Shown: one piece after another, positions 833 to 37,645 of the stretch
Layout: every line of letters starts with the position of its first letter
Position numbering within the stretch: position 1 is the first letter of the stretch
Origin: Mobula hypostoma
Taxonomy: Eukaryota
NCBI RefSeq assembly: GCF_963921235.1
Contig: NC_086097.1
Span: 40,240,001-40,304,000, forward strand
Direction of reading: 5' to 3'
Length of the DNA: 64,000 bases
Made by a program: the position numbers and the translations under genes
Notes under the pieces: model-generated
Databases searched by the model: none
Told to the model about the DNA's origin: nothing
Seen by the model: only the letters and a program-made list of their open reading frames with translations

Positions 833-1049
833 TTACAAATTGGCTCTCCATTGGAAGGGGAGGATTTTCCTTTCATCCTATACAAGCCTTCCTGTTCAGT
901 GATCTGAAACCTGAGGAGTGCTCTGAACCTTGCGCAGGTATGTACCTTAACAGATAAGCTGCCATATTCCCGAGTCACATTTCAGGCAATTGGCTGACAA
1001 TCCAAACCAGTGCTTCAGTTTGTCTGTTGTCTGTGATTTATATTAAGCG

Positions 1050-1500
1050 TAGGTATAAACCTTATTCGTGGGACTAGCAACTGTGCCACAGTGGCAGAAT
1101 CTGTACTGTCATTCTGTTTAATCCCTAGATATCACACAATGCAAACTTACTGGCCAAGTATCAAAGCGTGTAGTACAGAAATTGGTAATTGTTTTTTTAA
1201 CGATGCTGAAAGGCTTAATGAAGTCAGAATTATTTGTTCTTGGATTCATAGCAGCATTACCATTGTTGTCGCGTGCCTTTACAATCAAGAACACAAAATG
1301 TCCAGGAGACATTTCCTTCTGCACCACTGGGTACTTTATACTCAAGAACAAAGCTTCATGCCCACTCTATTAACAGCAGTATCTACACCATAAAAATGTG
1401 AACAGTATCCCCAAACTTTATATATAAAATGCTCATGGCATCCTTAGCTTCCTGGTACTCCAAAATCTGAAGCTGGACTTCAAGAGAACATTAATACTGT
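1050..1500 (+). pseudogene. pol: Probable foamy-like pol remnant (RT thumb/connection region)
   Basis: Frame of ORF 1091: W...FNDAERLNE...LYNQEHK...WVLYTQEQSFMPTLLTAV resembles recalled PFV W...LNTASNLEER...YYNETGK...YVFSKAELKFSMLEKLLTTM. Same strand and upstream of the integrase. Confidence 0.4.
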
Positions 1501-1689
1501 CACACACAATCTCAGGTGAACCAACCGAGCAGGCTATGAGGGGAACAGTTGAAGTCATTTGAATGATGGGAAATGATTTGTAATAGGGGTCAAAATATTG
1601 ATAATATAACAACACAGAACCAAATAAAACTATTTGTTTAATGAAGGTACATCATCTGTTTTGTCTCTCACAAAGGTAAATTCCTGTTG

Positions 1690-2640
1690 AGGAGAGGAAT
1701 ATTAGAAAGACTCATTTTCTCTGAATCTTGCTTCTTTAGATGCAACTTTGCAGTTCAAAATGATAATGATAATATAGGCTCTCCCAAATTAGGTAACCTA
1801 GTGCTCTTTTTGATTCTGCAAATTGACATTTTATCTTTTTCTCTGTCCCTTACAGTTTATTTATTTTTGTCTGCCCAACATGCTCTTTGTATGTGTCCTA
1901 CATTATTGCATTTTCTGCACGTTTCAACTTTAAATCTGCATTGGTTCGGTGTATGTGAGCATCTGCCACAAGGGTAATCCAATTTGTTCCACCAGGCAAG
2001 CCTCCATCTAGACACTGCAATTTTGTTCATTCTCAATTTCACTCTTAATTTCATTATTGAGTGCAACTCACTTGCACCTTTGTCTGCTCTTTCCATTGAT
2101 ACAACGATTTCATCTGCTCTTTTAAATGTGAGTTGTACTTCAGTTAGGAGCCGTTTTTGAATGGTTTCTTGTAAGATTCCACAAACTAAATGACCTCTCA
2201 GTGCATCATTTAGCCCATTACCAAACTGGCAATGACCAGACATTCTCTTCAATTCACCCATATACTGTATGCTGAAATGGACTTCCCTTCCTTTTGATCC
2301 TGCTCATGAAGTCTAAAGTATTTTGCAATCAACAATGGTTTTGGTTTCAATTGTTCCTGCATTACTTTCATGATATCAGCAAAACTCATTTTGGCTGGTT
2401 TTTTTGGAGCAATCAAACTTCTAAGCAAACCATATGCCTTTAAACCCAATGCACTCAGCAGAACAGGTACTTGTTTCTCATTGCCTATTTCAATTGCTTT
2501 AAAATACTGCTCAATTAGCTCAGTATGCATATTCAGTTTATCTCTTGTGCAACTGAATGTCTATCTTTCTGATGTAGCCTGTCATTTCTGCTCTTTTTAT
2601 TTATAATTATTATCACCCAGTGCTAACTGTTTATGAACCC
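1690..2640 (-). mobile_element. gag: Ty3/Gypsy LTR retrotransposon gag (frameshifted, 3'-truncated element)
   Basis: ATG at 2585 (MTGYIRKID); ORFs 2249-2530 and 1857-2261 with LRGHLVCG and CCHC knuckle CRKCNNVGHIQRAC. Confidence 0.9.
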
Positions 2641-2684
2641 ATGAATTCTTCCATTTAAAATAAAATTGCAGCACACTGCTGTGC

Positions 2685-3390
2685 AGCGGGACTTGGGAGT
2701 GCTTGTGCATAAATCACACGAGGTTGGTTTGCAGGCGCAGCAGGCAAATGGAATGTTGGCCTTCATTTGCTAGAGGGATTGAATTTAAGAGCAGGGAGGT
2801 AATGCTCTAACTGTGCAGGGTACAGGTGAGGCCGCATCTGGAGTACTGTCTGTAGTTCTGGTCTCCTTACTTGAAGAAGGATATACTGGCTTTGGAATTG
2901 GTGCAGAGGGGGTTCACCAGGTTGATTCCAGAGATGAGGGGGTTAGACTATGAGGAGAGATTAAGTTGCCTGAGACTGTACTCACTGGAATTCAGAAGAA
3001 TGAGAGGAAATCCTATAGAGACATAAAATTATGAAAGGGATAGATAAGATAGAGGCAGGAAAGTTGTTCCCACTGGTAGGTGAGACTAGAACTAGGGGAC
3101 ATAGCCTCAAGATTCGGGGGAGTAGATTTAGGAAGAGATGAGGAGGAACTGCTTTTCCCAGAGAGTGGTGAATCTGTGGAATTCCCTACCCAAAGAAGCA
3201 GTAGAGGCTACCTCAGTAAATATATTTAAGACAAGGTTGGATAGATTTTCGCATGGTCGGGGAATTAAGGGTTATAGGGAAAAGGCAGGTAGGTGGAGGT
3301 AAGTCCATGGCCAGATCAGCCATGATCTTATTGAATGGCAGAGCATGTTTGTTGGGCATAGTTACATACTCCAGCTCCTATTTCTTATGT
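2685..3390 (+). mobile_element. CR1 LINE 3' fragment inserted in the Gypsy leader
   Basis: RT C-terminus motifs (VRPHLEYC-like, RVVNLWNSLP) and CR1 3' end ctcctatttcttatgt. Confidence 0.9.
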
Positions 3391-3565
3391 ACTGCCTTTT
3401 CTTTTAACTTGACAGTCTCTCACTGTACCTGAAGAAGAATCTGCTATGCTGATTTTTTTTTTTACTTGACTGTTTCTCGCTGCACATTTTTTAACTCAAA
3501 TGTCTTGATGTGCTTCAACATGTGGGTAGTCATCTTGGGTTTGTTTAAAACTTCCTCATTGCCAA

Positions 3566-3805
3566 TGTTATGTTTGGTAACTCCAAAGCACTAAAACTAA
3601 TTGAAAGCGAAACAAAGGAGGTGGAGGATACTCATGCATGTTAATTTTTACTTTAACTGAGGCATGCACTCGTGCTGTGATGGCGTAATGACGTATCCCA
3701 TTTATGTACTTTTACATATAATGTGCAATGCATTATGCAAACGACAAAGAATGCTTAATCAAACAATACATTTCCAAATATTACTGAAATCTTAAATACA
3801 CAACA
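3566..3805 (-). mobile_element. 5' LTR of the Gypsy element, with adjacent PBS at 3553-3564
   Basis: Termini TGTT...AACA. On the minus strand the LTR is followed after 1 nt by TGGCAATGAGGA, a degenerate TGGCGACGAGGA-type Gypsy PBS. Confidence 0.75.
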
Positions 3806-3859
3806 GGCCACCTTTAGGATTCCATGAAATCAATATCATGAAGTGATGTATCATGCACA

Positions 3860-4690
3860 GTGTTAAAGTCTTGTTATGCTTGTCAATGTCAAGGAATACT
3901 ACCAAACACGTCTTTACCTATCCCCCCCGACATTCTGCTTTTCTGCTTTCTGCATGGATTGCTCTCTCCATGATTCCCTTGTCCATTCATCTCTTCCCAC
4001 CAATCTCCCTCCCGGCACTTACCCTTATAAACAGAATAAGTGCTATACCTGCCCATTCACCTCCCTCATCTCCATTCATGGCCTCAAATAGTCCTTCCAG
4101 GTGAGTCAACACTTCACCTGCAATTCTGTTGGGGTCATCTGTGGTATATGGTGCTCCCAAAGTGGCCTCCTCTACATTGGTGAGACCCAAAGTAAATTGG
4201 GGGGGGGGCACTTTTTCAAGCACCTTCATTTCATTCACAACAAGTAGGATTTCCCAAAGACCAACCATTTTAATTCCAATCCCCACATTTGTTCCAACAT
4301 ATCAGTTCATGGCCTCCTCTACTGCCATTATGAGATGACTTCCAGGATGGAGGAGCAACACCTCATATTTTATCTTGATAGTTTCCAACCTGATGGCATG
4401 GACATCAATTTCTCTAAATTTTGATATTTTCTTTTCCTTTCACATTCCCTTTTCTTCCATTCCCCATTCTGGCTCATCTCTTACTTCTCTTCTCCGCAGC
4501 TGTCTAGCATCTCTCCCTGGTGCCCCTCCTCCCTTCCTTTTACCCATGGTCCACTCTCTTCTCCTATCAGATTATATCTTCTTCACCTCCAATTAATTTT
4601 TCCTCCTATCATCTCTCTGCTTCTTACTTCATCCCCCCTTCGTCATCCACCTGACTTCACCTTCTAGCTTGTACTCCTATCCCCACTCTC
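3860..4690 (+). mobile_element. Penelope-like element 3' part (GIY-YIG endonuclease and pyrimidine-rich tail)
   Basis: CYTCPFTS...SFQVSQHFTC...CSQSGLLYIGETQ; MDINFSKF C-terminus; C/T-rich 3' region. Confidence 0.85.
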
Positions 4691-4928
4691 CATTGTGAGC
4701 TTTAAGAGTGTTTTAAGAATATTGTTTGAATTTAAACATGAATTAAATCACTGAAAATAAATGAACCGTGTTTTAAACTCCTTTGTTAGCCATAAGCATC
4801 TTCTCCTTAATGGGCGGGGGGGGGGGGGAACCAAGTGCTCGAATAGTGGATAATGGTAGTTACAATATTGGAATCTCAAAGTTGTATACTGTATACACAC
4901 TTCGATAATAAATGAACCTTTGAACCTT

Positions 4929-5505
4929 TATGAAGCTGATGGTCAAGGTAAAGTTTCGGTATGCCACCCTAAAAAAGATTTTAAAAAAATCAAATTCCTC
5001 CTGTCTACAAACAGGAATCCCTGATTTGAGAAGCCCTCCAGAGGATTTGGATACAATCATGGTGGTGGACAAGCCCCTTATGTGAAATTAGCGATGTTAT
5101 TCTGGTGGCCTTACATGTTGAGTGACTATAAGCAATTTGTTGCATATTGTAAGGAATATCTGGCCTATAATAAAGGAGAGTCCCAAGACCATCTACTATA
5201 AGATAAATAAAAGCAACTGCACCATTGCAGGTGTGGTAAGGTGACTATATTGACCTACTTCCTGTATCCCAAGGCAACCCACCATTTTGGAAACCTAATA
5301 AGTATACTTGTGATAATTGACCTTTGTACAGATATACGTGGTTAGTCTCCATGACAACTTGTAGTCAGACTGCAACCCCGTCACAGCACTCCAAAACTCC
5401 ATGTTCCCATATGCTGACACCCACACCTGCACGTATGCTGACTGAGTGTCTTCCGTTAGTGGTAAAGTCTTTCAAGCCATGTAGCCATGTGTGAACAACA
5501 GGCAC
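4929..5505 (+). pseudogene. pol: Foamy-virus-like integrase, N-terminal domain and first half of the catalytic core
   Basis: With frameshifts: YEADGQGKVSVCHP / QIPPVYKQESLI*EA / NHGGGQAPYVKLAMLFWWPYMLSDYKQFVAYCKEYLAYN / [17 protein letters not shown] / ILVIIDLCT / RYTWLVSMTTCSQTAT / VTALQ. Confidence 0.85.
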
Positions 5506-5507
5506 AG

Positions 5508-6045
5508 ATCAAAGTTCAAAAATTCAAAGTACATTTATTATCAAAGTAGGTATACGGTTTACAACCTTGAGATTCATCTCCTTACAGGCAGCCACAAAAC
5601 AAAGAGAACCCAAATAGAACCCATTGAAACAAAAGAAAACTTGAATACTTAATGTGCAGAGAGAGAAAAAAACAATTCATACAAAGAATAAAAGTAGGCA
5701 AATAGCACTTAGAACTGAAGTTCACAAAAGTGAATTAGTTGCAGGCCACGGCCTCAGTTCAGTAGAGAGACGAGTAAACCTCTTGGGGCAGCAAGCTGAA
5801 GTTCAGTGCAGAAATGAATAAATCTCCAAGCAGTGAGTTGAACACTGGCCTGACACTTGCCTCTGGCGCGGAAATCCTGACCTTTTCAAATTGGCCCAGC
5901 GCTTCAGTGGTCCAAACCTCAGGTTATTCATTGCTCTTGGACCTGGGCTCTGCTTTGCCTTGGGTCTGCCACATTGAATTGCCTCCAAGTATGCTCCAGC
6001 AATGGCCACACCTGGACTCATCCCCTCGAATTGGCCAAACGCGCT
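5508..6045 (-). mobile_element. Non-autonomous non-LTR element with Rex1-type 3' end, inserted in the integrase
   Basis: Begins caaagttcaaaaattcaaagtacatttattatcaaag; the same terminus occurs at about 14503, 54088 and, inverted, at 4865-4928 and about 45890-45920. Confidence 0.65.
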
Positions 6046-6049
6046 TTGC

Positions 6050-6498
6050 TGCATACAAGTGGAGTATAATACTTCATTCCAGCTTCTATCAAGTGGCAAA
6101 GTTGAGTGAAGGAATCGAGAGATTATGTAGGGCTTGGCAAAAGTGATCTACTATAGAGGCAAAATAGGCTACACTTGTCCATAAACAAAGTAGATTACAC
6201 CTCATTTCTTAACATACAATGTCCCCCTAAATACACCCCTGATTGCTAACTCAGGCCAACCATCGCCTACACCAGGGGACTGCAAAAGGAAAAAAAGTTG
6301 CATAAAAATAATTTTGACCCTAGTTTCCAAACTAAGTGGAAACTGCCTTGTCTTGTTACCCAGATTATCAACAATATGACTATGGCAATCAAGACTGGGT
6401 GGAGAAACAAGACTGTAAGTAAAGCTGTCTCCAAAGATAATATCAAACCTGTCCCAGTACGATTTACTCCCCCAGAACGAGTGGTGCTTTTATGTTAG
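6050..6498 (+). pseudogene. pol: Foamy-virus-like integrase, end of core and C-terminal domain
   Basis: SSGKVE*RNREIM*GLAKVI from 6089; PSFQTKWKLPCLVTQIINNMTMAIKTGWRNKTVSKAVSKDNIKP in ORF 6298-6498. Confidence 0.88.
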
Positions 6499-6589
6499 AC
6501 CGGTATATGGGTCCACCACAGAACTCCTACACCCCGACAAGAGGTGGATGTATTGAAAAGATAAAACACATGTTTAGATCTGAAAAGAA

Positions 6590-7255
6590 ATGAAAAACTT
6601 GTTCACTGAGGAACATCTCATTGATACATTGCCCAGGGATAATACATCCAGACTGCATTGTTGTTTACAGAGTAAGGCAGACTCAAACTTCAGGAGGAAA
6701 TGATGCTTTTGCTGTATTTTACTTTTACTATGTATAGTACTGTTAATTTCTGCCTTATTTACTATTTGCTTTCTCACAGACGAAGTTGCATTTAATGTGG
6801 AAATTGTCTCATCTGGCTCAGTCACCCCTAAAGCTTAATGACTCAGAATATTATTAGAGAGGATCTGTGATCAATAATTCTGCTTTAGATATCAATAAAT
6901 AGCCCTGATCTCTTAGTCATATGTGAACTAATACACTGAAACCCTAACCCTTGTCTGTGGCAAATTGATAGCTCCTGTCCACTTAAGTATTTACTCTGAT
7001 GTCATTGCAGATGAAATGAACGTATGGACAGACAAAGAACCACTTGCAGAAATGATTATTAACACCTTAACAAAACTGAAATATTCTAGCCCAGATATTG
7101 AAGGTCAACTAATAGAGGAATCCTTGACTTGCATCCCTTTTGAAGGGATACACTTGAAAGAAAAGTATAGACACTGTTATGTAATTGAATGATCCCACTC
7201 ATGGGAACATGTCTTCGAAATAGTTAGACTGGACCGTTGTGAAAACCCCTATTTT
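6590..7255 (+). pseudogene. env: Foamy-like env: leader peptide with signal/anchor helix and SU N-terminal block
   Basis: RRK*CFCCILLLLCIVLLISALFTICFL...FNVEIVSSGSV (6692-6825); LSIYSDVIADEMNVWTDKEPLAEMIINTLTKL...EKYRHCYVIE*SHSW...LDRCENP (6965-7250). Confidence 0.8.
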
Positions 7256-7284
7256 TTTTAAAGCAGATTTCTCCAGTAAACACA

Positions 7285-7878
7285 TATTATTTCACGAACA
7301 AACTCTTCTCAGGCTTCCAGCTGAGTACAGATATTGATTTTAAATGATGTTTTGATGATGAGCTCTGCCATCTTCATCAGGGATGATGTCTGGGCATGTC
7401 TAGTCCAATGGCATTTAAACCCCATCGTCCATCCTTCCTGATTAGTTAATCCTCATTCAGTCAGGTTTCCTCTGTCCCACCTTGTTTACAATTGAGTGAA
7501 ATCTTTATCTTTATTAAAATTATTTTCCTCTAGTTTTATTTCAATGGCTTCCTTCACCAAGTGGTCCCAAAAGCCATTGAAATAAAACTAGAGGAAAAGA
7601 ATTTTAACAAAGACCAAGGTCTCACTCTAAATAAGAACTGAAATTTGATAGTAAACAAGGTGGGACAGCAGAAACCTGATTAGATGAGGACTAACCAATC
7701 AGGAGGAACAGGTGATGGGGGTATAAATATTACTGCACTAGAAATGCCCAGGCATCACTCCTGATGATGGTGGTAGAGTTTATCATTGAAACATAGGTTA
7801 GAATCGATATCTGTACCCGGCTGGAAGGCCGAGAAGAGTTTATTCATCATATACTCTGGGAAAGCACTAGATCCTTTT
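7285..7878. mobile_element. Penelope-type inverted-repeat (fold-back) element inserted in env
   Basis: About 7295-7550 is an imperfect reverse complement of about 7575-7848 (aactcttctcaggcttccagc versus gctggaaggccgagaagagtt). Confidence 0.75.
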
Positions 7879-7910
7879 TTCATGTCTTATTGCACTTTCC
7901 CTTTTTGGCC

Positions 7911-8235
7911 AAAAAGGTATCTGAACATACTTACTATGAAGAGTTCAGATGTTCCCTTGTTTCCAATTATGGCTACTATTCCAATCCATTGTTAAATGTC
8001 ACAGTAACATAACAATTTTATGCATTTCTAGGTTATGTTCTAAATAGTTCAGTGAAGCCTTTGATTTGGGTTTCGCATGGGGAAGATCAGATGCTAAGAT
8101 CCACTGAAGCAGAACGTAAGATGAAACTAAAATGCTGGTCAACTGAAACTGGTAAATCCAATGGGCTTTTTAGAGATTTTATTCTTAGCGTCTTTTGTAT
8201 CTACCCAGATTTCTTATTTGCCCATAATTAAACAG
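7911..8235 (+). pseudogene. env: Foamy-like env SU middle block
   Basis: About 108 codons in one frame with two stops (about 8010 and 8229): FRCSLVSNYGYY...KLKCWSTETGKSNGLFRDFILSVFCIYPDFLFAHN*T. Confidence 0.8.
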
Positions 8236-8264
8236 TCGTTTAATTATGGGTAAATAATTAAACA

Positions 8265-11200
8265 GACCATAAGATAGAGGAGAAGAATTAGGCCACATGG
8301 CCCGTTGAGTCTGCTCTGCCATTTCATCATGCTGATCCATTTTTCCTCTCAGCCCCAATCTCCTGTCTTATCCCCATATCCTTTCATGCCGTCTCTAATC
8401 AAGAATCTATCACCTCTGCCTTAAGTATACCCAATGACTTGACCTCCACCACTGCTTGTGGCAAAGGACTCACAGATTCACCACTCTCTGGCTAAAGAAA
8501 TTCCTCCTCATTTCTGTTCTAAGAGGATGCCCCTCTATTCTGAGGCTGTGTCCTCTAGTCTTTGACACCCCAGCATATCCTCTCCACATCCACTCTGTTG
8601 AGGCCTTTCAACATTCAATAGGTTTTAATGAGGTCACCCTTCATTTTTCTGAATTCTATTGAGCACAGGTCCAGAGCCTCATATGAAAAGGCTTTCAATC
8701 TTGGAATCATTTTTGTGAACTTCCTTTGAACCCACTCCAATGTCAGCACATTATTCTTAGATAAGTGGCCTACAACTGCTCAGAATACTCCAAGTGAAGC
8801 CTCCCCAATGCTTTATAAAGCCTCACCATTACATCCTTGCTTTTATATTCTAGTCCACTCAAAATGAGTGCTAACATTGCATTTGCCTTCCTCACCGCCT
8901 ACTCAACCTGCAAGTTTGCCTTTAGGGAATCCCGCATGAGGACACTCAAGGCCTTTGCACCTCAGACTTTTGAATTTTCTTTCCATTTAAAAAATAGTCT
9001 ACACTTTTATTTCTTCTACCAAAGTGCATAACTATACACTTTCTGACACTGTATTCCATCTGCCACTGGTTTGCCTATTCTCCTAATCTGTGTAAGTCCA
9101 TAAATTCTCTTTACTTCCTCAAAACTACCTGCTCCTCCACCAATCTTCATATCATTCACAAACCTAGCCACAAAGCCATCAATCCTGTCATGTAAGTCAT
9201 TGACATATTAATGTAAAAAGAAGCGGTGCCAACACAGACCCCTGTGGAACACCAGTGTTCACCAGCAGCCAATCAGAAAAGGCTCCCTGTATTTGTACCT
9301 TTTACCGACTGCCAATCAGTTAAAGCTTTATCAAAGCTAGAATCTCTCCTGTAATACCATAGGTTCTTAACTTGTTAAGCTGCCTCATGTGTGGCACCTT
9401 GTCATCGGCCTTCTGAAAATCCAAGCACAAATGATCTACTAATTCTTCTTTGTCTATCCTGCTTGTTATTTCTTCAAAGTATTCCAATAGATTTGTCAGG
9501 CAAGATTTTTCCTTGAGGAAACCATGCTGACCATGGCCTATTTTGTCATGTGGCTCCAAGTACCCTGAAACTACGTCCTTAACAATTGACTCCAACATTT
9601 TCCCAACTGCTGAGGTCAAACTAATTGGCCTATAAATTTACCTTTTTCTGTCTCTCTTTTCCTGAAGAGTGGAGCGACATTTGCAATTTTCCATCCTCTG
9701 GAACCATGCCAGAATCCAATAATTTGTGAAAGATCATTACTAACATCTCCTGAATCTCTTCAGCCACCTCTTTCAGAACTCTGGGGTATATCCCATCTGG
9801 AACAGCTGGCTTATCTACCTTCAGACATTTCGCTTTCCCAAGAATCTTCTCCCTAGTAATGGCAACTTCATGCATTTTTGTCCCTTGACACTCTCAAACT
9901 TCCATCATACATTTAGTGTCTTCCACTGATGCAAAATACTTATTCAGTTCATCCACCATTTCCTCGTCCTCCATTACTACCTCTCCAGCATAATTTTCTA
10001 GTGGTCCAATATCTACTCTCGCCTTTCTTTTACACTTTATGTATCTGAAGAAACTTCTGGTATCCCTTTAACATTATTGGATAGCTTATATTCATGTTCC
10101 ATCTTTTCCTTCTTAATGACTTTTTAGTTGCTTTCTGTTTCTTTTTAAAAGCTTTCCAATTCTCTAACTTCCCACTAATCTTTGCTCTATTATATACACT
10201 TTCTTTGGTTTTGTGTTGGCCTTGACTTCTTTTATTAGCCATGGTTTTGTCATCTTTCCTTCAGAATACTTCTTCCTCTTTGGGATGTATATATCTTGTG
10301 CCTTCCGAGTTACCGGGAGAAATTTCAGCCATTGCTGCTTTGCTGTCATCCCTGCCAGTGTTCTTTTCCAATCAATTCAGGCCTTTACTCCACTGTAATA
10401 CTGATACATCTGACTAGCTTCCTTTCTCAAATTTCAGTGTGAATTTGATCTTATTATGGTCACTTCACTAAGGGTTCCTTTACTTTAAGCTCTCTAATCA
10501 ATTCTGGTTCATTGCACAACACCCAATTCAGAATAGGGAACCGCTCGTGGGCTGAATCATAAACAGCTCTAAAAAGCCATCTCATAGGCATTCTAGAAAC
10601 TCCCCCCTCTTGGGATCCACTACAAACTTGATTTTCCCAATTTTACTGCATATTAATATCCCCCATGACGATCATAACTTTTGATATGCATTTTGCATCT
10701 CTTGTGATAATTTGTAGGCCATATCTTTACTACTGCTTGGGGGTCTGCATACAACATTGTATCATTTCTTAATGCATGCATGCATTTCTAAATGACAATA
10801 AATGAGGACTGAGAGTTCTCATAATCTAACTCCCATCAGGGGCTTTTACCCTTGAAGTTCCTTAGCTCTACCCACAATGATTCAACACCTTCCAAGCTTT
10901 TGTGACCTCTTTCTAATAATTTGATTTAATCTTTTACCAACGGTACTACGGCACCACCTCTGCCTACCCATCTGTCCTTTCGATATAATATGTATCCTTT
11001 GACATTAAGCTCCTGGCTATGATTCAGTGGTGCCTATATGTCCTACGTGACAATCTGTAACTGTGCTACAAGTTCATCTACTCTATTCCATGTACTGCAT
11101 ACATCCAAATATAACCCCTTTGTTCCTATATCACCTTTCTCGATTTCGTATGCCCTTTACATTTTTGCCCTATTGTCAGACTCTCCTTGCTAGCAGTCTC

Positions 11201-12740
11201 ACTACACATTGCCTCTATTTTTAAACTAACTACCTCATCCTCAGCATTATCACTCCAGTGCCCATCTTCTGCCAAATTAGGTTAAATCTCTGGAACAGAG
11301 CTAGCAAACCTGCCCACAAGGATATTGGAGCAACACACATTAAATGCTAGAGGAACTCAGCAGGCCAGAGAGCATTTATTGAAAAATGTACAGTCAACGT
11401 TTTGGGCCGAAACCCTTTGGCAGGACCAAAACACCAACTGTACTTTTTTCCATGGATGCTGCCTGGCCTGCTGATTTCCTCCAGTATTTTGTGTGTGTTA
11501 CTCAGATATCTAGCATCTGCAGATTTTCTCTTGTTTGCAAGGATATTGGTCCCGTTTGGATTCAGGTGTAATCCATCTCTTTAGTACAGGTCGTACCTCT
11601 CCCAGAAGAGATCTCAATGATAAATAAATATGAACCCCTGCTCTCTGCACAAGTTCCTCAGCCACGCTTTCATCTACCAAATCATCTTTTTCTTACCCTC
11701 ACTGGTACATGGCATCAATCCAGAGATTACCACTTTGGAGGTCCTGTTTTTCAGCTGTCTACCTAGCTCCTTAAAATCTCTGTTCTCCTCACCTTTCCTA
11801 CCTATGCCATTGGTGCCAATATGTACCAAGACTTCTGGCTACTCCCTTGAGAATTCTGCAGACCTGATCTGAGACCCTGGTACCTAGGAGGCAACATAAT
11901 GTACTGTCCGGGTGTCTCTGTTATGCCCACAGAAACTCATCTCTGTCCCTCTAACTATGGAACCTCTTTTCAGCACTGCAGTCCTCTTCATCCCTCTTCT
12001 CTTCTGAGTCACTGCACCAGACTAGGTCACTGTGGCTCCCACCTTGTAAGTTGTCCCCCTCAACAATATCCAAAGTAGTATAACCTATTATTGAGAGAAA
12101 TGGCCGCAGGGATACTCTGCACTGGTTGTGCATTTCTTTTCCTTCTCCTGACAGCCGCCCAGTTACCTGCCTCCTACAAATTAGAGGTGACTATATCTCT
12201 GTAGCTCCTATCACCTCCTCATTCTCCTGTCTGAGCGGAAGGACGTCAAGCTGCAGCTCCAGTTCTTTAATACATTCTCTGAGGAAATGCAGCTCAGTGT
12301 AACTGGTGCAAGTGTGGTTATCCGGAAGACTTGAAGTCTCCCAGAACTCTGACATCTCACACGCAGGACAAAACACTGCTCCTGGAGCCACTCTCACTGC
12401 AGTACTGTGCCCTAACAGATGAGAAATGAAGAATTCAGAAGAAAAATAGAAACTTATGAGATACTTACCTTGCCCAAGGTTGATCTCACCCTAGCCTGAT
12501 TAGCCAAAGCCACTCTAAACACTGGCCCATTCACCACAATGGCCGTTCAAGACTTGCGCTTAAAATATTTTTGTTCACCTTTTCAAATGGATCCTGCTCA
12601 ATGGATCTTGATCAATGGATCCTTCTTCAACCTGCATTTTTTGGAGTCCAACTCCAAAAAACTGACGTGAATTTCTGTCTTTTTAATCTTGACTGTCCAC
12701 CTGATTTAAGAGACAGTGTCTGACGTAATGATGTCAGTGT
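8265..12740 (-). mobile_element. Near full-length degraded CR1 LINE (ORF1 and ORF2) inserted in env
   Basis: 3' tail at 8265; RT motifs QHGFLKEKSCLTNLLEYFEE and DFQKADDKVPH; ORF1 CPACEM...IKELELQLDVL zinc-finger/leucine-zipper region at 12191-12397. Confidence 0.92.
11329..11537. mobile_element. Short Penelope-derived palindromic element with 12-bp TSD
   Basis: caaggatattgg at 11317-11328 and 11538-11549; internal aaatgctagaggaactcagcaggcca versus tggcctgctgatttcctccagtattt. Confidence 0.85.
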
Positions 12741-12749
12741 AAGGTGCCT

Positions 12750-13592
12750 ATTGTTGGTTTGATTGTAATTGAAGTAAAGGGCTGCAGCTTTTGTTAAGCA
12801 CATAAAATGACTCTCACCTGTTTTCTTGACAAAATCCTACTATTTTCAGACAAGTCTTCAATTATTGCTGTGTATTCAGTTGCATGATGTTGTTGTCAAC
12901 AGGCAGAGGTAAAAAAAACAATTTTGCTCTAAACAGTTTTCATGATTTTTAACAAAATATTAGAGTGAAATTGCCTGCATTGACAGTGCACATTCTCACA
13001 ATAACACTGACCTGATCCTTTGGTTCACTCGGAAGGGAGAAATTTCTGATGAAAACATACTGCTATCAGAGGCTCACTCGCTTTTTAAGGTTTATAGAGG
13101 AAATGACTCTTTGGAGTAATTTGATCATTTAATCTATGTTGCATATCTCAAAACAGAAACACAAGTCCAGTTTTAAGGAATGATTTTTGATAGATGCAAC
13201 GAAGAATGTTCCATAAGGACTTGATATTCATTAACAATGACCAGAAGAAACTAAATTAAAATTGAACTTAATCAAATCGCAGTAATATTTCTCTGTATAT
13301 TATGAGAATAACTGAAATGACACAATAAAAAGTGAGAAACACCTCCTTTCACAAGTTTCCTTTCCAGACTCATTTTTCATACTAAACCTTTGACTAGCTT
13401 AACGCTCCAGTTGAAATGATAGCTAAGACTTTTCCAGCTGTTGCAAATTTAGCTTCTGCAGCAGCAAATTCAGTTCCTGGGTGTGTTGGCACTACTTTAA
13501 ATTGGACTTAGAGACGACTTTTTGCAGTTTTGCAGTGGAGAATTCCCTTAGCTATTGGAATTATTGTTTTCATATTCTTTTTGTTGAGATGA
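12750..13592 (+). pseudogene. env: Foamy-like env TM C-terminal part with membrane-spanning domain
   Basis: 13407-13592: PVEMIAKTFPAVANLASAAANSVPGCVGTTLNWT*RRLFAVLQWRIPLAIGIIVFIFFLLR*. The 12750-13400 part is assigned mainly by position. Confidence 0.7.
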
Positions 13593-14502
13593 AGTCTGCA
13601 AGGATGGAAGTGTGGTGACTTTTGTGTTTTGTACAGCAGTTCCACTCCTAAGGCTTCATTAACTTCCATACCTAACCTGCACTACTGTGGGTTTTATCTC
13701 ATATGGTATATACTTCCTCGTACTTGCCTTTTACCTATTCCTCTGGTTCATCCTTAATCCTAGAAGAGTGAAGAGCAGGGGCTGCCCTGATCCTGCTACC
13801 CTTGCAACTCTCCTTTACCTAGTTCTGATCACTAACGTGACACATGGGTATTAACTGGTCTAATAACACAATCCCACAGAAAGATGAGTATTCAAAGATT
13901 ATTTTTTTACTCATGTATTTGGATGTTGCATATTTACTTTGCAACATGGGTAACTTCATATATATGGTCCTTAACATTTTATACCTTGTAAATGCCTTGT
14001 TCATTGCTAATGATGATACTACTCTATCGTGGTTTACTACTTTGACTTTTAAAACCATCTGTCATATACTTTTTATACGTTGGGAAAAGAATTATCAGGA
14101 GGAGAAAGATCATTATCCCTGAGGAAGGCAATAGTCCTGATAGCCTTTTTACCTATTCTGTTGTGATTTCTTCAGAAATGATGAGGTAATCCTAGTACCT
14201 CTAAGGTCAATAAAGTGTTTTATTGTCACAAGGTAGAAATAATTAAATGTGCTTTACTTACTCTTTAGGTACAAGTATATTGTATGTGATACTCCAAGGA
14301 ACACTAAACCTACCAATACTCCTATTCATATTATATCTAATATTACATTTACATTAATAATTTGTAAATGTGGTTGATAAAATCCCATGGTTTGACAGAA
14401 CAGATTGAGTAGTCCTTGCTCAGTTAAGTTTTCTGGGAAAACATACAAGTTCTTATTTTGGTCCAATCCTTAACAAAGTAAAGGGGGAAGAAATGAACAA
14501 TT

Positions 14503-15120
14503 AAAGGTTCAAAGGTTAATTTATCATCAAAGTGTTCAACTCTGAAATTCTTCTTCTCCAGATAGCCACAAAACCAAGAAAGAAAAGAACAGCAGCACGA
14601 TCATCCACCGCCAAACCCTCCCTCCCTGCACGAAAGAAACAAATAAAAATGGAACAGGCCCATCAACCCCCAATCCCCCTCTCCTGCACACACAAAAAAA
14701 CTGAGAAATATTGGTTTAAAAAAAAGAATAGAGAAAACTGTAAGACTGAAAAAAGAAGTCTATAGTCCAAGTCCATTCCCTCTCTAGTAGCAGAGTGATC
14801 CTACCAGCGATCAAAAGGCAGTCTCCCCTCTCCAGAAGCAGAACGATCCCACCAGAGATCAAAAGGCAGGCAGCCAGCGCTCACCCTTTGCAATCACCTC
14901 AATTGTTTCAATCTCCCTCGTCACTTTAATAAGCGAACAGTGGAAGCTTTAATCAGCAAAATGGAGTCGAACATCGGCTCGCACCTCATATCACATGAGG
15001 TTTGTGCTCGCTGGCTCTGTCTCCTGGAATCCTCTCAGAGACTGTAGAGCGCTGAAACACCCAAAAGATCTCCAAACTGCAAATCGCAGGCTCCAACAGT
15101 CCAAAATCCCTTTCAATTAT
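14503..15120 (-). mobile_element. Non-autonomous non-LTR element with Rex1-type 3' end
   Basis: aaggttcaaaggttaatttatcatcaaagtg terminus shared with the 5508 copy. Confidence 0.6.
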
Positions 15121-15982
15121 ATGCAGAGTTCAGCATCACGAATATAGAGAGAAACTTGTATAGATGGTATGGTTGGTATGAGAATATTAAGGTACAACAG
15201 AGCAATGTGTGATCGCTCCAAGGGAGTGATATAACCACATCTTATGTTGTGATGTTCTTTTCTGGGAGCTTAGAATTAAAGGTATAGACAATTCTCTACA
15301 GGAGAACAGTACTCTTCCTGACTTTTGTGAATGTTTTTATGCATATCATTATATAGTGGAATTGTGTAGCTGATTGAGATAATTAAAATGTAAGATTACT
15401 AATCTTAAGGTAAAGAAGACAGCAGTACACAGTCAGTAATTTGTTTACAAGACTTGTTTTCAGGAAACTTGAGCAAAGTTATGCATCATATCAAAAGCAA
15501 ACCCATGTGAAAGAGATGAACTATCCTCATTTTATTGACAGACATGCCAGCAGACCTGATAAGCTAATGGTGGCAGAGACAGTAATTAGTACTTACAACA
15601 AGAAAATGCCAAGAACTGTATGTGGGAAAGAAGATTTTAAAGATTGACTGATATGGGCTAATAATATGGGCATTGATACATTGTTATTGCGTGTTTATAG
15701 AAGATTATTTTAGTAACGTTCCTTTGAGGTTTGGGAAATTTGTGCAGCAGAGATTGAGGAAATGAGAACTCTAAAGAAAAAATCATACAGGAACCCATAC
15801 TTTGGGCAATGCTTGATGCGTGGTTTGAGCATCAGAATGAAGGGAACCTTTTCTAGCACTGGTAACCTACTGGAATGGATGAAGAAGTGACAGTCAGTTC
15901 CCAAGAGGTGTGTTGACAGGTCTTGATATCGAAGTGATATCGGTAGCAAGAAGGTGGATTAGAAATCTTCACTTAGCAAGGT

Positions 15983-15995
15983 GGGGGGAGGGGGA
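15983..15995 (+). other. Candidate 3' polypurine tract of the provirus
   Basis: ggggggaggggga followed by tatgg (possibly decayed TGTGG), about 2.4 kb downstream of env. Confidence 0.3.
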
Positions 15996-18218
15996 TATGG
16001 TAAATATTCACTCCTTGGATACTTTGCTAACCTTGCTTTCGAAACACAGCATCTTTTAAAGTGGAACAGTTGAAAGTAAACTTCCAACTAACAATTTATT
16101 TAACTTCTAATTGTAAATGAAAGCCAGCCTACAGTTCTTAAAATGTGAATGAAAAGTATTCTTGAAAGAACAGCTTTGCAAATAGGCTCAGTATTTTGAA
16201 GACACTCTGTCTCTAAGAAGTCACTGTAGCTGCTTAATTATTGCTCGAGTAGAGTATGGGATAATGAGTTCGTTGATTTGGGTTATTTTAGGGCAGACAG
16301 GCTAACTCTTAAGTTGCTTAGCTCAAGGAAGCTCATAGAACATGTATAATATAATTTAGCATATCAATTACTGATGTGTTTATAGTTTGAAAGGTTTATG
16401 TACTCAAAGAAGTTAGCTTTACAGCATTAATACCAAGATCTATGTCCCCAAATGATGCTTTTAAACCATGTGTTGAAAGGATATCTGAGGAAATATCACA
16501 TGCTTATGAAGTCTCTCAAGTGGCTGAAAAGGGGTAGAAACATAGAGAGCACTTCAGGCTTGTTAGGAATTGAGCAAGCAACATCAAGAAACATGAAAGA
16601 ACTAGAATCCATTCATCCAGCTTTGGTTTCTGTCACAGGCACTTGTTAGTATGCATCTTTTGTATATCTTTTTAGATTACAGGAATTGTACTTGTTTTGG
16701 GAATCCTTTGTCCTTTTCGTGTTATCCTTTCTGTTTAAGGAATGCTTAATGCTTTAGATTTTGGAAATGGTTTGTGTTATAGAAATGATTTGTATTTTGG
16801 AAATGTTTTATAATGTTTCAAGTTTCAAGATAATAATTTGATAATTCAAGATAAGATAGAAATCCTCTGAGTTTTAAAAGTGTTTCAAGAATGCTGTTTG
16901 GATTTTATCATGTACCGCTGAAATTAAACGAATTGTGTTTTAAATTACTTTGTTACCTGGAAGCTTTTTCTCCTTCCTGGGGAAAGGGGACCCACTGCTT
17001 GAATACAGCTAAACTCAGCGTGGAGAATCAATAGGGAAGTAAATTAGTCTTTGAAGATTGGGTAGTTACTGTATAATCTCCCTTTAGTAAGAGTACTTGT
17101 GGCTATTTACTGTATATCCGATAGGGCTTAAAATCTTCATTTGGGTTTAAAACTTCACGGTCAGCAAGCCCAATACCATCATAATCAAATGACTTTTGGC
17201 GTGGATACCTAAGTACCTATTACAGAAAGTGGCTTCGGATATTATTGGATTTCATGATAATGAGGTTTGACAATTTATTTGCATCAGAATCCTATTTAGC
17301 AAATAAGTTAAATTCACTTATATTAAATTCCTTGAGCCAGCACTGAAAACACGATCCTGTGGTTAATTGAGATTTTCATATTGATGGTGGCTTTTGATCT
17401 TTTTATTCAGTACCTAATATATAAGTTGCACAGTGCACTTATAAACATGAATAACAGTACAATCTTTAATTACGAATGAGACCACTTGGGAAATTAGATT
17501 TTCATGTTGATGTGTCAGTTTTTTTAGTGATTAAGTGGTTAATTGCTTTACAGCTGAAAAGACATCTGTGTTTTTGGGAGCTGGTGCTGAAGTTAATCAA
17601 AGCAAGACTGGAGGCCACACATATTCTTACTACAGGAATGATTCTACTGTTAGAACAGATCAGTGGTGGTTTTTGAAGAGACCTTCTTTTCTACATCTCT
17701 TAAGATAAATGTAATTAATATGCTTAGTGGTCTTGGGTGCTGTCTTGAAAATTTAATTAAATATTGAACAATTAAAAATTAATATTTCTCCTGCACCTGC
17801 TTTTTGTTTTTCTTTATCCCTTTTGATCTCTATGTAGTCACATTAGTGATTTAGTAAACATTTACCTTCTTGATCGATTAGGTACAAGTTATATAAAGAT
17901 GAGGAATATACTCAAAGACTCTGCAGTTGTGATTTTTTTTGTTTCTGTTGAATCCTTCTGTAATATATTTTGAAAACTATCTGGAACAGTGTTTGAATAT
18001 GTGTGCCAGGGCCAAACTAATTTCTGTACCATTCAAACATTAGCACAGGTTTTGCAATCTTCCTGAGACTATGGGCTTGATGATAAAATTACAACTATTG
18101 CCCATAACCTCAGAATAAGAAGGTGGCCATCTCCTTCAATATTTGGATTCCCATGATGACTTCAGATAAGGAATTGCCACCCTATTGAAGATGAAAGGTC
18201 AACAGATATGAGTCCAAG

Positions 18219-18837
18219 TTAGACACATCAAAGTTGCTGGTGAACGCAGCAGGCCAGGCAGCATCTCTAGGAAGAGGTACAGTCGACGTTTCAGGCCAAG
18301 ACCCTGCGTCAGGACGAACTGAAGGAAAAGTGAGTAAGAGATTTGAAAGTGGGAGGGGGAGGGGGAGATCCAAAATGATAGGAGAACATCGACTTCTCTA
18401 ACTTCCGCTAATGCCCCACCTCCCGCTTGTACCCCATCTGTTACTTACTTTTATAAACATTCTTTCTCTCACTCTCCTTTTTCTCCCTCTGTCCCTCTGA
18501 ATATACCCCTTGCCCATCCTCTGGGTTCCACCCCCCCCCACTTGTCTTTCTTCCCGGACCTCCTGTCCCATGATCCTCTCATATCCCCTTTGCCAATCAC
18601 CTGTCCAGCTCTTGGCTCCATCCCTCCCCCTCCTGTCTTCTCCTATCATTTTGGATCTCCCCCTCCCCCTCCCACTTTCAAATCTCTTACTAACTCTTCC
18701 TTCAGTTAGTCCTGATGAAGGGTCTTGGCCCGAAACGTCGACTGTACCTCTTCCTAGAGATGCTGCCTGGCCTGCTCCATTCACCAGCAACTTTGATGTG
18801 TGTTGCTTGAATTTCCAGCATCTGCAGAATTCCTGTT
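18219..18837 (+). mobile_element. Young Penelope-like 3' fragment with inverted terminal duplication and TSD
   Basis: 18222-18387 is a near-perfect reverse complement of about 18637-18803; tgagtccaag flanks at 18209-18218 and 18838-18847. Confidence 0.9.
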
Positions 18838-19017
18838 TGAGTCCAAGGTAAGTTGGTTTAGGACTTGGATAGAAACTGGAAGGTGCCAACATGATCCTTC
18901 TTGCCGACCTTGCTGGTAGATATTGAAGGGTGTGAAATTCTGCTATGCCCTCTGCAGTGCCAATTTACCAGTGATGAAGGGCAGATGAATACTGTGATTG
19001 TTGACAAGAACACCTAA

Positions 19018-19993: not shown

Positions 19994-20744
19994 AACCCCA
20001 CCCTCATCTCTAGTCTCCTCTATACTGGTCCACCTGGTCTAAGCCTCTCCCATTGATTGAAGAGACCATAACAACCCCTAATCAAACCCAGCCCAGCAAC
20101 CACCCCTGTTATTGCCCAATTACTGATGGGCAATAACTACCAGCTATACAGGTATTTAGAAAAATGGCTTGTCTTTGGTAACTGGAAACTCAAACATTTT
20201 TAAGGTATTGATGCTGATATTTTTTAACAATCTTTAATAGATTTCATTATAAAAATAGTCAAGCAGACATGCTTCCCCGTTGAATATTATGTGAACATCT
20301 CCAGGAATCATTGGCTTTATCAACATGATACATGTCCATCGAATTCACAGATCTTAATTTAGCAAGCCAAGTGAAACCACCTTTATGTCTTATTTTGCTG
20401 AAATATCAAGTTATTGATTATAGAAGGAAATCAAATAAAGTTATTTCACTGTATGAAACAATCCTACATGATGCACAGTGATTGAAAAGCCTTCTGTCTA
20501 AGCAGAATGAAAGATGAAGTAGCTTCAAAGTTTGATATGCTTGATATTACAGTGCAATCATTATACCCTGAGCCAAGCAATGCTGCAAATTTGTAATTAC
20601 TTTTGATAGCAGTCAGCCAATTGCTAGTCCACATTACTATATCCATTTACTTTGCTGTGCAAATGCAAAGACTTGAATTCTCTTATGGAATGAAAAACAA
20701 AGTTAATTTATATTGAGAGCATCAAACTACAATGGAAGAATTTC

Positions 20745-20890
20745 ACAAACAAAAGAAAATCTTCAGATGCTGGAAATCCAAGCAACACACACAAAATGCT
20801 GGTGAACGCAGCAGGCCAGGCAGCATCTATGGAAAGGAGTACCGTCGACATTTCCGGCCGAGACCCTTCAGAAGGACTGAGGAAGGGTCT
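20745..20890. mobile_element. Penelope terminal fragment
   Basis: gatgctggaaatccaagcaacacacacaaaatgctggtgaacgcagcaggccaggcagcatctatgg. Confidence 0.8.
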
Positions 20891-36461: not shown

Positions 36462-37645
36462 AAAAGGCCTTTGACAAGGTGCCACATAGGAGATTAGTGT
36501 GCAAACTTAAAGCACACGGTATTGGGGGTAAGGTATTGGTGTGGGTGGAGAATTGGTTAGCAGACAGGAAGCAAAGAGTGGGAATAAACGGGACCTTTTC
36601 AGAATGGCAGGCGGTGACTAGTGGGGTACCGCAAGGCTCAGTGCTGGGACCCCAGTTGTTTACAATATATATTAATGACCTGGAAGAGGGAATTAAATGC
36701 AGCATCTCCAAGTTTGCGGATGACACGAAGCTGGGTGGCAGTGTTAGCAGTGAGGAGGATGCTAAGAGGATGCAGGGTGACTTGGATAGGTTGGGTGAGT
36801 GGGCAAACTCATGGCAGATGCAATTTAATGTGGATAAATGTGAAGTTATCCACTTTGGTGGCAAAAATAGGAAAACAGATTATTATCTGAATGGTGGCCG
36901 ATTAGGAAAAGGGGAGGTGCAACGAGACCTGGGTGTCATTATACACCAGTCATTGAAAGTGGGCATGCAGGTACAGCAGGCGGTGAAAAAGGCGAACGGT
37001 ATGCTGGCATTTATAGCGAGAGGATTCGAGTACAGGAGCAGGGAGGTACTACTGCAGTTGTACAAGGCCTTGGTGAGACCACACCTGGAGTATTGTGTGC
37101 AGTTTTGGTCCCCTAATCTGAGGAAAGACATCTTTGCCATAGAGGGAGTACAAAGAAGGTTCACCAGATTGATTCCTGGGATGGCAGGTCTTTCATATGA
37201 AGAAAGACTGGATGAACTGGGCTTGTACTCGTTGGAATTTAGAAGATTGAGGGGGGATCTGATTGAAACGTATAAGATCCTAAAGGGATTGGACAGGCTA
37301 GATGCAGGAAGATTGTTCCCGATGTTGGGGAGGTCTAGAACGAGGGGTCACAGTTTGAGGATAGAGGGGAAGCCTTTTAGGACCGAGGTTAGGAAAAACT
37401 TCTTCACACAGAGAGTGGTGAATCTGTGGAATTCTCTGCCACAGCAAACTGTTGAGGCCAGTTCATTAGCTATGTTTAAAAGGAAGTTAGATATGGCCCT
37501 TGTGGCTACAGGGGTCAGGGGGTATGGAGGGAAGGCTGGGTTCTGAGTTGGATGATCAGCCATGATCATAATAAATGGCGGTGCAGGCTCGAAGGGCCGA
37601 ATGGCCTACTCCTGCACCTATTTTCTATGTTTCTATGTTTCTATG
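36462..37645 (+). mobile_element. Young 5'-truncated CR1 with uninterrupted 355-aa RT C-terminal ORF (36479-37546)
   Basis: SGVPQGSVLGP, KFADDTKL; no stops; (tttctatg)3 tail. Confidence 0.97.

Follow-up and report, generated by a model that had tools for sequence, protein, structure and literature searches.

We describe the remains of an endogenous retrovirus (ERV) in a window of 64,000 nucleotides, by which we mean the whole stretch of DNA that was analysed (C1:40240001-40304000 of a 3.48 Gb assembly of 200 contigs). The region from approximately 4694 to 17181 is very probably a dead member, truncated at the 5' end, of an old and high-copy family of foamy-like ERVs, which are class III elements related to the spumaretroviruses. 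Some 6.2 kb of viral sequence survive, interleaved with five later repeat insertions that total approximately 6.3 kb, and the copy no longer has gag, protease, reverse transcriptase (RT) or RNase H. Long open frames are absent from the provirus region, in which the remaining genes are full of stops and frame changes, and no obvious host gene was seen in the window. Taken alone the window makes a thin case, and the evidence therefore comes from its relatives in the same genome, the paralogous loci that carry labels such as L002 and L042.

A preliminary description of this DNA had proposed an old germline integration of a foamy-like virus that was broken up by later transposons. This proposal is borne out by the affinity of the Pol proteins, by the joins observed in paralogues and by a junction between long terminal repeat (LTR) and flanking DNA that is shared with other organisms. 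The span that it gave, 1050-17800, was too wide at both ends: the element runs from approximately 4694 to 17181, and LTR matches stop at 17181-17193.

Polymerase

The 5' parts missing from the window were found in three paralogues. One of these, L042, shares with the window an integrase that is 75.7% identical over 559 bp and a start of the env-like gene that is 72% identical, the LTR also being common to both, and a single frame of it runs through RT, RNase H and integrase if stops are written as X. The translations were compared with PDB chains by phmmer, and the contrasts that follow cover the proteins in that database. The RT-RNase H part of L042 matched foamy virus Pr125Pol (7o24, E = 2e-33; 7o0g, E = 6.8e-33; 7o0h, E = 1.7e-27) and entries from prototype foamy virus (PFV; 7kse, E = 2.8e-27; 7ksf, E = 6.6e-27), with the best match extending over approximately 500 residues in a single stretch. 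The next matches were to Ty3 RT (E = 2.4e-4) and to murine-type, human immunodeficiency virus (HIV) and other retroviral RTs (E >= 0.28). The integrase core of L042 matched eight PFV integrase sequences (E = 2e-9 to 1.2e-8), followed by an integrase catalytic-domain entry at E = 8.5e-4, with named HIV entries just behind.

RNase H was also identified in two further loci. That of L023 matched PFV RNase H (2lsn, E = 9.2e-8), and all seven matches at E <= 1 in that part of the locus were foamy; that of L026 matched PFV RNase H weakly (E = 0.018-0.058). A word-indexed protein search with the RNase H-integrase region of L023 and the RT-RNase H-integrase region of L042 was empty, an index of this kind missing decayed reads. 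As judged from these sequences, no other protein with a solved structure comes nearly as close to the Pol of the family as that of foamy viruses does.

For the window copy itself, we scanned the three forward frames of 901-18602 with Pfam at E <= 1, with stops read as X. The sole relevant match was Integrase_H2C2 at approximately 5058-5171 (E = 0.0021), which is below the gathering score; the only other match, to Otospiralin (E = 0.044), is unrelated. No reverse transcriptase family was matched in these frames. The top PDB match of the window integrase was PFV integrase (E = 0.14), and the DNA of the integrase block is 72-78% identical to the integrase of the paralogues.

Limits of the element and collinearity with paralogues

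The blocks of viral sequence in the window are pieces of one element, because paralogous copies carry the same blocks contiguously; as a repeat family they are more than a chance assemblage. The forward-strand collinearity seen in the preliminary description is thus real. Of the order that it gave, pol (RT?), integrase and three env regions, with a post-env region also kept, the succession from integrase through the env-like gene and post-env region to the LTR holds and the leading RT block does not. The block in question, 1050-1689, is single-copy in the genome (self-match only) and has no Pfam match; together with 10 kb upstream, it showed no similarity to the RT-RNase H and gag-leader sequences of the paralogues in blastn or tblastx.

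Two sets of 19 and 17 loci were laid on the window, together with six upstream stretches for the integrase join. Loci that do not display a given join either lack one of its sides or carry insertions of their own. Positions 7291 and 7886 are joined in six of the 19 loci (L002, L005, L007, L008, L012 and L020) and in seven of the 17 (L029, L030, L034, L036, L038, L040 and L041). The join of 8239 to 12847, with 160-245 bp unaligned between them, was present in 13 of 19 and seven of 17 loci, and that of 14504 to 15114 (left edge 14501-14504) in six of 19 and one of 17. The integrase join, from 5482-5506 to 6051, was observed in two of the 19 loci, three of the six upstream stretches and three of the 17 loci. 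Six excisions had been proposed to restore the provirus, and across four of these the paralogues join almost to the base. The segment 1690-4690 is not demonstrable as an insertion into the provirus, because the block to its left is no part of the element.

In the window the integrase is preceded by a 64 bp repeat fragment and, before this, by an LTR fragment; everything between the 5' LTR region and integrase has therefore been lost. The full layout was assembled from several copies; every copy examined is missing some parts. L025 and L026 supplied the 5' LTR, primer binding site (PBS) and leader, L042 supplied RT, RNase H and integrase, and the window, L002, L012 and L040 supplied integrase, the env-like gene, the post-env region and the LTR. 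The order LTR-gag-pol-env-accessory region-LTR is seen in this composite picture from several copies.

Terminal repeats, primer binding site and gag region

The limits of the 3' LTR are set by the genomic matches. At least 58 matches to the LTR region were obtained with 40 of the 3602 candidates scored, and many of them span query positions 899-928 to 2082-2094, which correspond to 15998-16027 and 17181-17193 of the window; matches to the LTR only likewise begin at 15998-16027. In a self-blast of the window, 4696-4814 matched 16868-16981 (74.8%, E = 2e-16). A local alignment of the LTR-fragment pair covers 208 positions at 76% identity, with a Kimura two-parameter distance of 0.29, and L025 and L026 also have the piece at 4694-4862 within their 5' LTRs. 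The date that this distance would give, approximately 73-294 million years at 2e-9 to 0.5e-9 substitutions per site per year, was not relied upon, since the pair may derive from two different proviruses.

We note that element-oriented positions 108-204 of L042 hold the same part of the LTR as window 4694-4862, and that its direct neighbour is RT in the former and integrase in the latter. Because the same LTR part adjoins pol in both copies, deletions that begin within the 5' LTR and extend into pol may be recurrent in the family.

In L025 and L026 a PBS-like sequence lies within a few bases of the LTR end. Twelve of its first 15 bases are those of the tRNA-Lys site of the cichlid element AciFLERV as printed in the supplement of PMC5512871, whose authors liken that site to the one found in most mammalian foamy viruses. 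Judged by these bases, the family has a foamy-type PBS, for tRNA-Lys1,2 or for the related tRNA-Asn, with decay hiding which tRNA. After the PBS the two copies share a leader of approximately 296 bp (80.7% identity). The sequences after the leader in these two copies have no C-X2-C-X4-H-X4-C motif in any frame, and neither Gag_spuma nor a protease family was matched in the copies scanned. At L025:1150-1300, approximately 250 codons after the PBS, 18 of 40 residues are glycine or arginine, a feature seen in one of the two copies. Foamy Gag is not known to have a Cys-His box and carries glycine-arginine-rich boxes; the fit here is too slight to count.

Copy number, shared locus and age

The preliminary description had taken the element for a lone hidden provirus and had suggested a search for paralogues and orthologous loci. 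The first idea is refuted by the hundreds of decayed copies that such a search reveals in the same genome. For the DNA of 12741-14502 there are at least 71 genomic matches (40 of 1041 candidates scored), with approximately 65-77% identity over the long matches. The RT-connection/RNase H DNA has at least 46 matches (40 of 290 candidates scored), and the 86-residue open reading frame (ORF) at 6932-7189 at least 130 at E <= 0.001 (150 of 222 candidates scored), among which the longest open frame is 282 residues. Overall the family matches lie at approximately 65-80% identity, and copies are approximately 70% identical to each other.

The suggested search for orthologous loci was likewise productive, as the same LTR/flank junction at 17181 is present in three other organisms, here termed B, E and F. 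A contig of organism B bridges it over 17114-18200 with 14 differences in 1087 letters, one of organism E over 17062-17745 with 37 differences in 684, and one of organism F over 17056-17853 with 48 differences in 798, so that the organisms differ by up to approximately 6% at the locus. Several of the insertion boundaries are also bridged: 5507/5508, 6045/6046, 7291/7292, 7885/7886 and 8264/8265 by contigs of organism B, 5507/5508 by contigs of organisms E and F, and 12740/12741 by one contig of organism F. It follows that the provirus is older than the divergence of these organisms, as are at least some of its repeat insertions.

A history consistent with these observations can be outlined. 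An exogenous foamy-like virus would have entered the germ line and spread until its internal copies numbered in the hundreds and its LTR candidates in the thousands (3602 at first look). The window copy would then have lost its 5' half by deletion, after which repeats inserted into it, and decay would have been neutral since, leaving no viral function now. Nothing points to present activity or to a host function.

Env-like gene

The env-like gene is approximately 2.2 kb in length and starts at the end of pol. Near its start there is a membrane-span-like segment at 6704-6790, with a Kyte-Doolittle maximum of 3.21, and at its very end a second one at 13518-13586, with a value of 2.19, which is followed by a stop a few codons later. 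Both segments are also present in L008, and the same ending of the gene is found in the read-through translations of aligned copies. Two membrane-spanning segments, and no more, are described for foamy Env, the first in its leader peptide and the second in its transmembrane (TM) subunit (PMC11468914), and the gene thus displays the two-span pattern of that protein.

In our view the gene might be a true, extremely diverged foamy-type Env, situated after pol and made up of a leader with a span of its own, a surface (SU) subunit and a TM subunit with a terminal anchor. We hold this tentatively, as a reading whose chances approach, and at best about equal, those of its being wrong. The support for it consists of the position of the gene and its two membrane spans.

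The first part of the gene is interrupted by two adjacent in-frame stops, at 6836 and 6839, which lie 15-16 codons past the first span. We aligned 27 copies pairwise to window 6419-7291 and found the stop at 6836 in 17 of 23 copies and that at 6839 in 17 of 26. Some of the other stops that are shared may not be in the frame in which the copies were truly read, and two stops, at 6701 (two of 21 copies) and 6914 (one of 25), are private to the window. Three explanations of the shared double stop are possible: the env-like frame may already have been broken in the progenitor, in which case the family spread within the genome and not by reinfection; the leader-like part may be a separate small gene; or the sites may have mutated recurrently. 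If the gene is a true foamy-type Env, the double stop would mark a lineage that was still multiplying in the genome after its envelope broke.

Alternative interpretations

A number of results weigh against the interpretation given above, most of them against the identity of the envelope. The LP, SU and TM regions (LP denoting the leader peptide) had been presented in the preliminary description as matches to spumaretroviral Env, a homology that is unsupported by any search. The Pfam foamy Env model, PF03408, which that description had named as a check, gave no match in the window scan, none at E <= 10 in L002, L012 and L008, and none in the whole genome in a profile search that was a strict first look and can miss matches under approximately 60 bits. 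With phmmer against the PDB at E <= 10 there were no matches for window 6290-8263; the foamy Env structures 8RM0 and 8RM1 are reported to have been deposited, their presence in the PDB set searched being unverified. A PDB match in frame 1 of L012 is to a WW domain only and is unrelated. The env read-through of L008 (751 residues) returned nothing at E <= 0.001 in an exhaustive HMMER search of 1,835,955,588 representative proteins. The env-like gene is, in addition, about a quarter shorter than foamy Env, which has approximately 980 residues (982 positions in the PF03408 model), and the double stop described above is shared by most of the copies aligned.

Other points of this kind concern Pol and the 5' end. 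The strong Pol evidence comes from sequences of the paralogues, the integrase signals of the window itself being weak (E = 0.0021 and 0.14), and 6046-6498, presumed from its position to be the integrase C-terminus, had no PDB integrase match with phmmer. The distinction between a foamy-like element and another class III element draws on the best-hit contrast in the PDB, on gene content and on the PBS. Finally, the piece at 4694-4862 is no closer to the 3' LTR (76%) than unrelated copies of the family are to one another, and for that reason it may not be the provirus's own 5' LTR.

The alternative that we take most seriously, although we judge it rather unlikely, is that the family is foamy-like by its Pol and that the env-like region is not homologous to foamy Env. 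The region would then be another type of envelope, an acquired gene, or two genes, namely a small membrane protein closed by the double stop and a second ORF, similar to the extra ORFs of ray-finned fish elements. The empty homology searches and the position of the double stop in so many copies are as expected from this alternative, and two accessory genes, acc3 and acc4, are reported between pol and env in AciFLERV (PMC5512871). A structural model of the last 200 env-like residues, obtained with AlphaFold2 from 20 read-through rows, contained helices only (pLDDT, the predicted local distance difference test, 62; pTM, the predicted template-modelling score, 0.23), and Foldseek found nothing in the PDB at E <= 0.001. 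These results go in the same direction, but the model is too poor to count either way. Against a non-homologous region stand its position directly after pol, its spans near the start and at the very end as in foamy Env (PMC11468914), and the fact that in several copies the same frame continues past the double stop with few further stops. An empty Env search is moreover usual for fish elements and is no evidence against homology, because the published elements are likewise without detectable Env: Gag and Env domains are reported as undetected in shark and lamprey foamy-like ERVs, and the env of zebrafish DrFV as without detectable homology (PMC10699275).

Two further alternatives concern the family as a whole. 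It could belong to another class III lineage, either ERV-L-like or unnamed, that finds foamy viruses as its best match only through the lack of other class III structures; the PDB proteins to which the Pol and integrase contrast is confined include no ERV-L or fish class III references. We regard this as improbable in view of the single RT-RNase H match of approximately 500 residues at E = 2e-33, the env-like gene and long post-env region, the foamy-type PBS, and the window frames, in which Pfam revealed neither a dUTPase nor any additional domain of another kind. A Ty3/Gypsy-type LTR retrotransposon with an env-like ORF, and not a retrovirus, might be suggested by the Integrase_H2C2 domain, which is common to Ty3/Gypsy elements, and by a Ty3-like RT fragment in L023. 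That fragment is not in other copies, however; the family RT matches foamy Pol at 2e-33 and Ty3 at 2.4e-4 with the same query, and RNase H matches foamy RNase H. This last explanation is accordingly the least credible by a wide measure, and a foamy-like ERV family remains the most consistent interpretation of the data.

Features of the window copy

The features of the window copy are listed in Table 1. The sequence between the env-like gene and the 3' LTR amounts to approximately 1.8 kb and occupies the position at which foamy viruses carry accessory genes.

Table 1. Features of the foamy-like ERV copy and of the repeats inserted in it (window coordinates)
Feature	Position	Strand	Remarks
5' LTR fragment (or another LTR copy of the family)	4694..4862	+	Corresponds to 3' LTR 16868-17036
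Fragment of high-copy SINE-like repeat	4865..4928	.	Between LTR fragment and integrase; 64 bp
Integrase, N-terminal part: zinc-binding region (~5058-5171) and start of catalytic core	4929..5507	+	Several frames, stops
Later insertion, high-copy SINE-like repeat	5508..6045	.	Paralogues join 5482-5506 to 6051
End of integrase gene (presumed)	6046..6498	+	82-codon ORF 6250-6495, stop 6496-6498; collinear with paralogues
Env-like gene, first part, with leader-like region	6419..7291	+	Hydrophobic span 6704-6790; stops 6836-6841; 86-codon ORF 6932-7189
Later insertion, MITE-like repeat with inverted internal structure	7292..7885	.	Paralogues join 7291 to 7886
Env-like gene, middle	7886..8264	+	Collinear in paralogues; no family match
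Later LINE insertion	8265..12740	-	RVT_1, E = 1.5e-14; missing from paralogues
Env-like gene, last part	12741..13592	+	Membrane span 13518-13586; stop 13590-13592; at least 71 genomic matches
Post-env region, first part	13593..14502	+	Short open frames only; collinear in paralogues; no Pfam match
Later insertion, SINE-like repeat	14503..15120	.	Paralogues join 14501-14504 to 15114
Post-env region, second part	15121..15980	+	Internal-region matches stop at 15980
Polypurine tract	15981..15998	+	Purine run with two interruptions, directly before 3' LTR
3' LTR, ~1.18 kb	15998..17181	+	Genomic LTR matches have the same limits in many copies

The inserted repeats are of several kinds, including short and long interspersed nuclear elements (SINEs and LINEs) and a miniature inverted-repeat transposable element (MITE). 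In the self-blast the short fragment at 4865-4928 resembles, in inverted orientation, the insert ends at 5515-5575 (82.8%) and 14502-14535 (91%), and the end of the 14503-15120 insert resembles 4897-4930, also inverted. Contig depth is very high over the 5508-6045 repeat, which shows loose ends with poly-A, and in the 7292-7885 repeat contig joints of the 'opposite strands' type occur at 7405-7417/7706. A GDSL-like esterase domain (E = 3.2e-5) is also encoded by the LINE at 8265-12740, upstream of the reverse transcriptase and on the same minus strand.

Beyond the 3' LTR, the region 18195-18964 is a very abundant repeat that contains an inverted pair, 18215-18386 and 18809-18638 (93.6%). Pieces of the same repeat are found at 11320-11540, within the LINE insert, at approximately 20740-20890 and at many of the paralogous loci. 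On the forward strand at 36464-37546, a 360-codon frame represents the C-terminal part of a LINE reverse transcriptase; this is probably a young copy, far better kept than the ERV.

The paralogous copies have insertions of their own. The gag-pol region of L025 is interrupted at 2790-3250 by a transposase of Tc1/mariner type (DDE_3, E = 2.3e-12). In L023 a Ty3/Gypsy-type fragment occupies element-oriented positions of approximately 4800-6200, with the 5' LTR on one side and the RT-connection region on the other, and has the look of foreign DNA inserted there. Its RT (RVT_1, E = 1.9e-6) was rejected as the RT of the family, being best on Ty3 and not on foamy viruses and absent in other copies.

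Significance

Foamy-like ERVs serve to date the origin of retroviruses, and in basal vertebrates they are thinly sampled and described almost only by pol. The present family adds a delimited element, with LTR limits, polypurine tract, PBS, pol, env-like gene, post-env region and high copy number, and the locus common to several organisms gives it a minimum age. The practical worth of the family lies in the material that it offers. Should the gene be tied to foamy Env, knowledge of that envelope would be extended; otherwise the family is one more decayed class III family. A true foamy-type Env would be the first envelope recognised in its foamy-like lineage and would come with hundreds of copies for studying its evolution; if, in addition, the host is a cartilaginous fish, the foamy Env architecture would go back to the base of the jawed vertebrates.

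Comparison with known elements

Compared with ERV-L and other class III elements, the window family has in common a class III type polymerase and an old, high-copy and decayed state. It differs from ERV-L in its env-like gene, its post-env region and its foamy-type PBS, and in having no dUTPase match. ERV-L carries a dUTPase after integrase and uses a primer other than the foamy type, and it is not known to have an env gene.

Exogenous foamy viruses carry the genes tas and bet after env, and a region after env is likewise present in the window family. The prototype and simian foamy viruses also provide the best matches to its RT-RNase H and integrase and share its gene order. In contrast, the Foamy_virus_ENV model and the solved Env structures are unmatched, the env-like gene is only approximately 2.2 kb, and no Gag_spuma or protease match was found. 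The envelope spans near the N-terminus and at the C-terminus are a further likeness, as far as foamy Env is described in PMC11468914.

Ray-finned fishes, coelacanth and amphibians all have well-documented foamy-like ERVs (PMC5512871; PMC10699275). According to these reports AciFLERV, AliFLERV and DrFV-1 resemble the window family in a tRNA-Lys-type PBS after the 5' LTR, in LTRs of more than 1 kb, in extra sequence after env, in high copy number and in an env that is hard or impossible to recognise. The window family is far more decayed, with approximately 70% pairwise identity.

The closest comparison is with chondrichthyan elements, whose rarity had been overstated in the preliminary description, as examples from the elephant shark (CmiFLERV; PMC5512871) and from the catshark (PMC10699275) are in print. 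The latter is a consensus, ERV-Spuma.0-Sca, that came from a 2023 screen of 12 chondrichthyan genomes (PMC10699275). Both resemble the window family in a foamy-like Pol, in being old and decayed endogenous elements and, so far as these two reports describe them, in Gag and Env domains that standard domain searches did not detect (PMC5512871; PMC10699275). The window family is a new member of the foamy-like ERVs, or possibly belongs to the same lineage as one of these published elements. For CmiFLERV pol alone is reported as detected (PMC5512871); to this the window family adds an env-like gene, a post-env region, a polypurine tract, a PBS, LTR limits and a shared locus. Its limits are better defined than those of the chondrichthyan examples in print, and it includes a candidate for the envelope gene.

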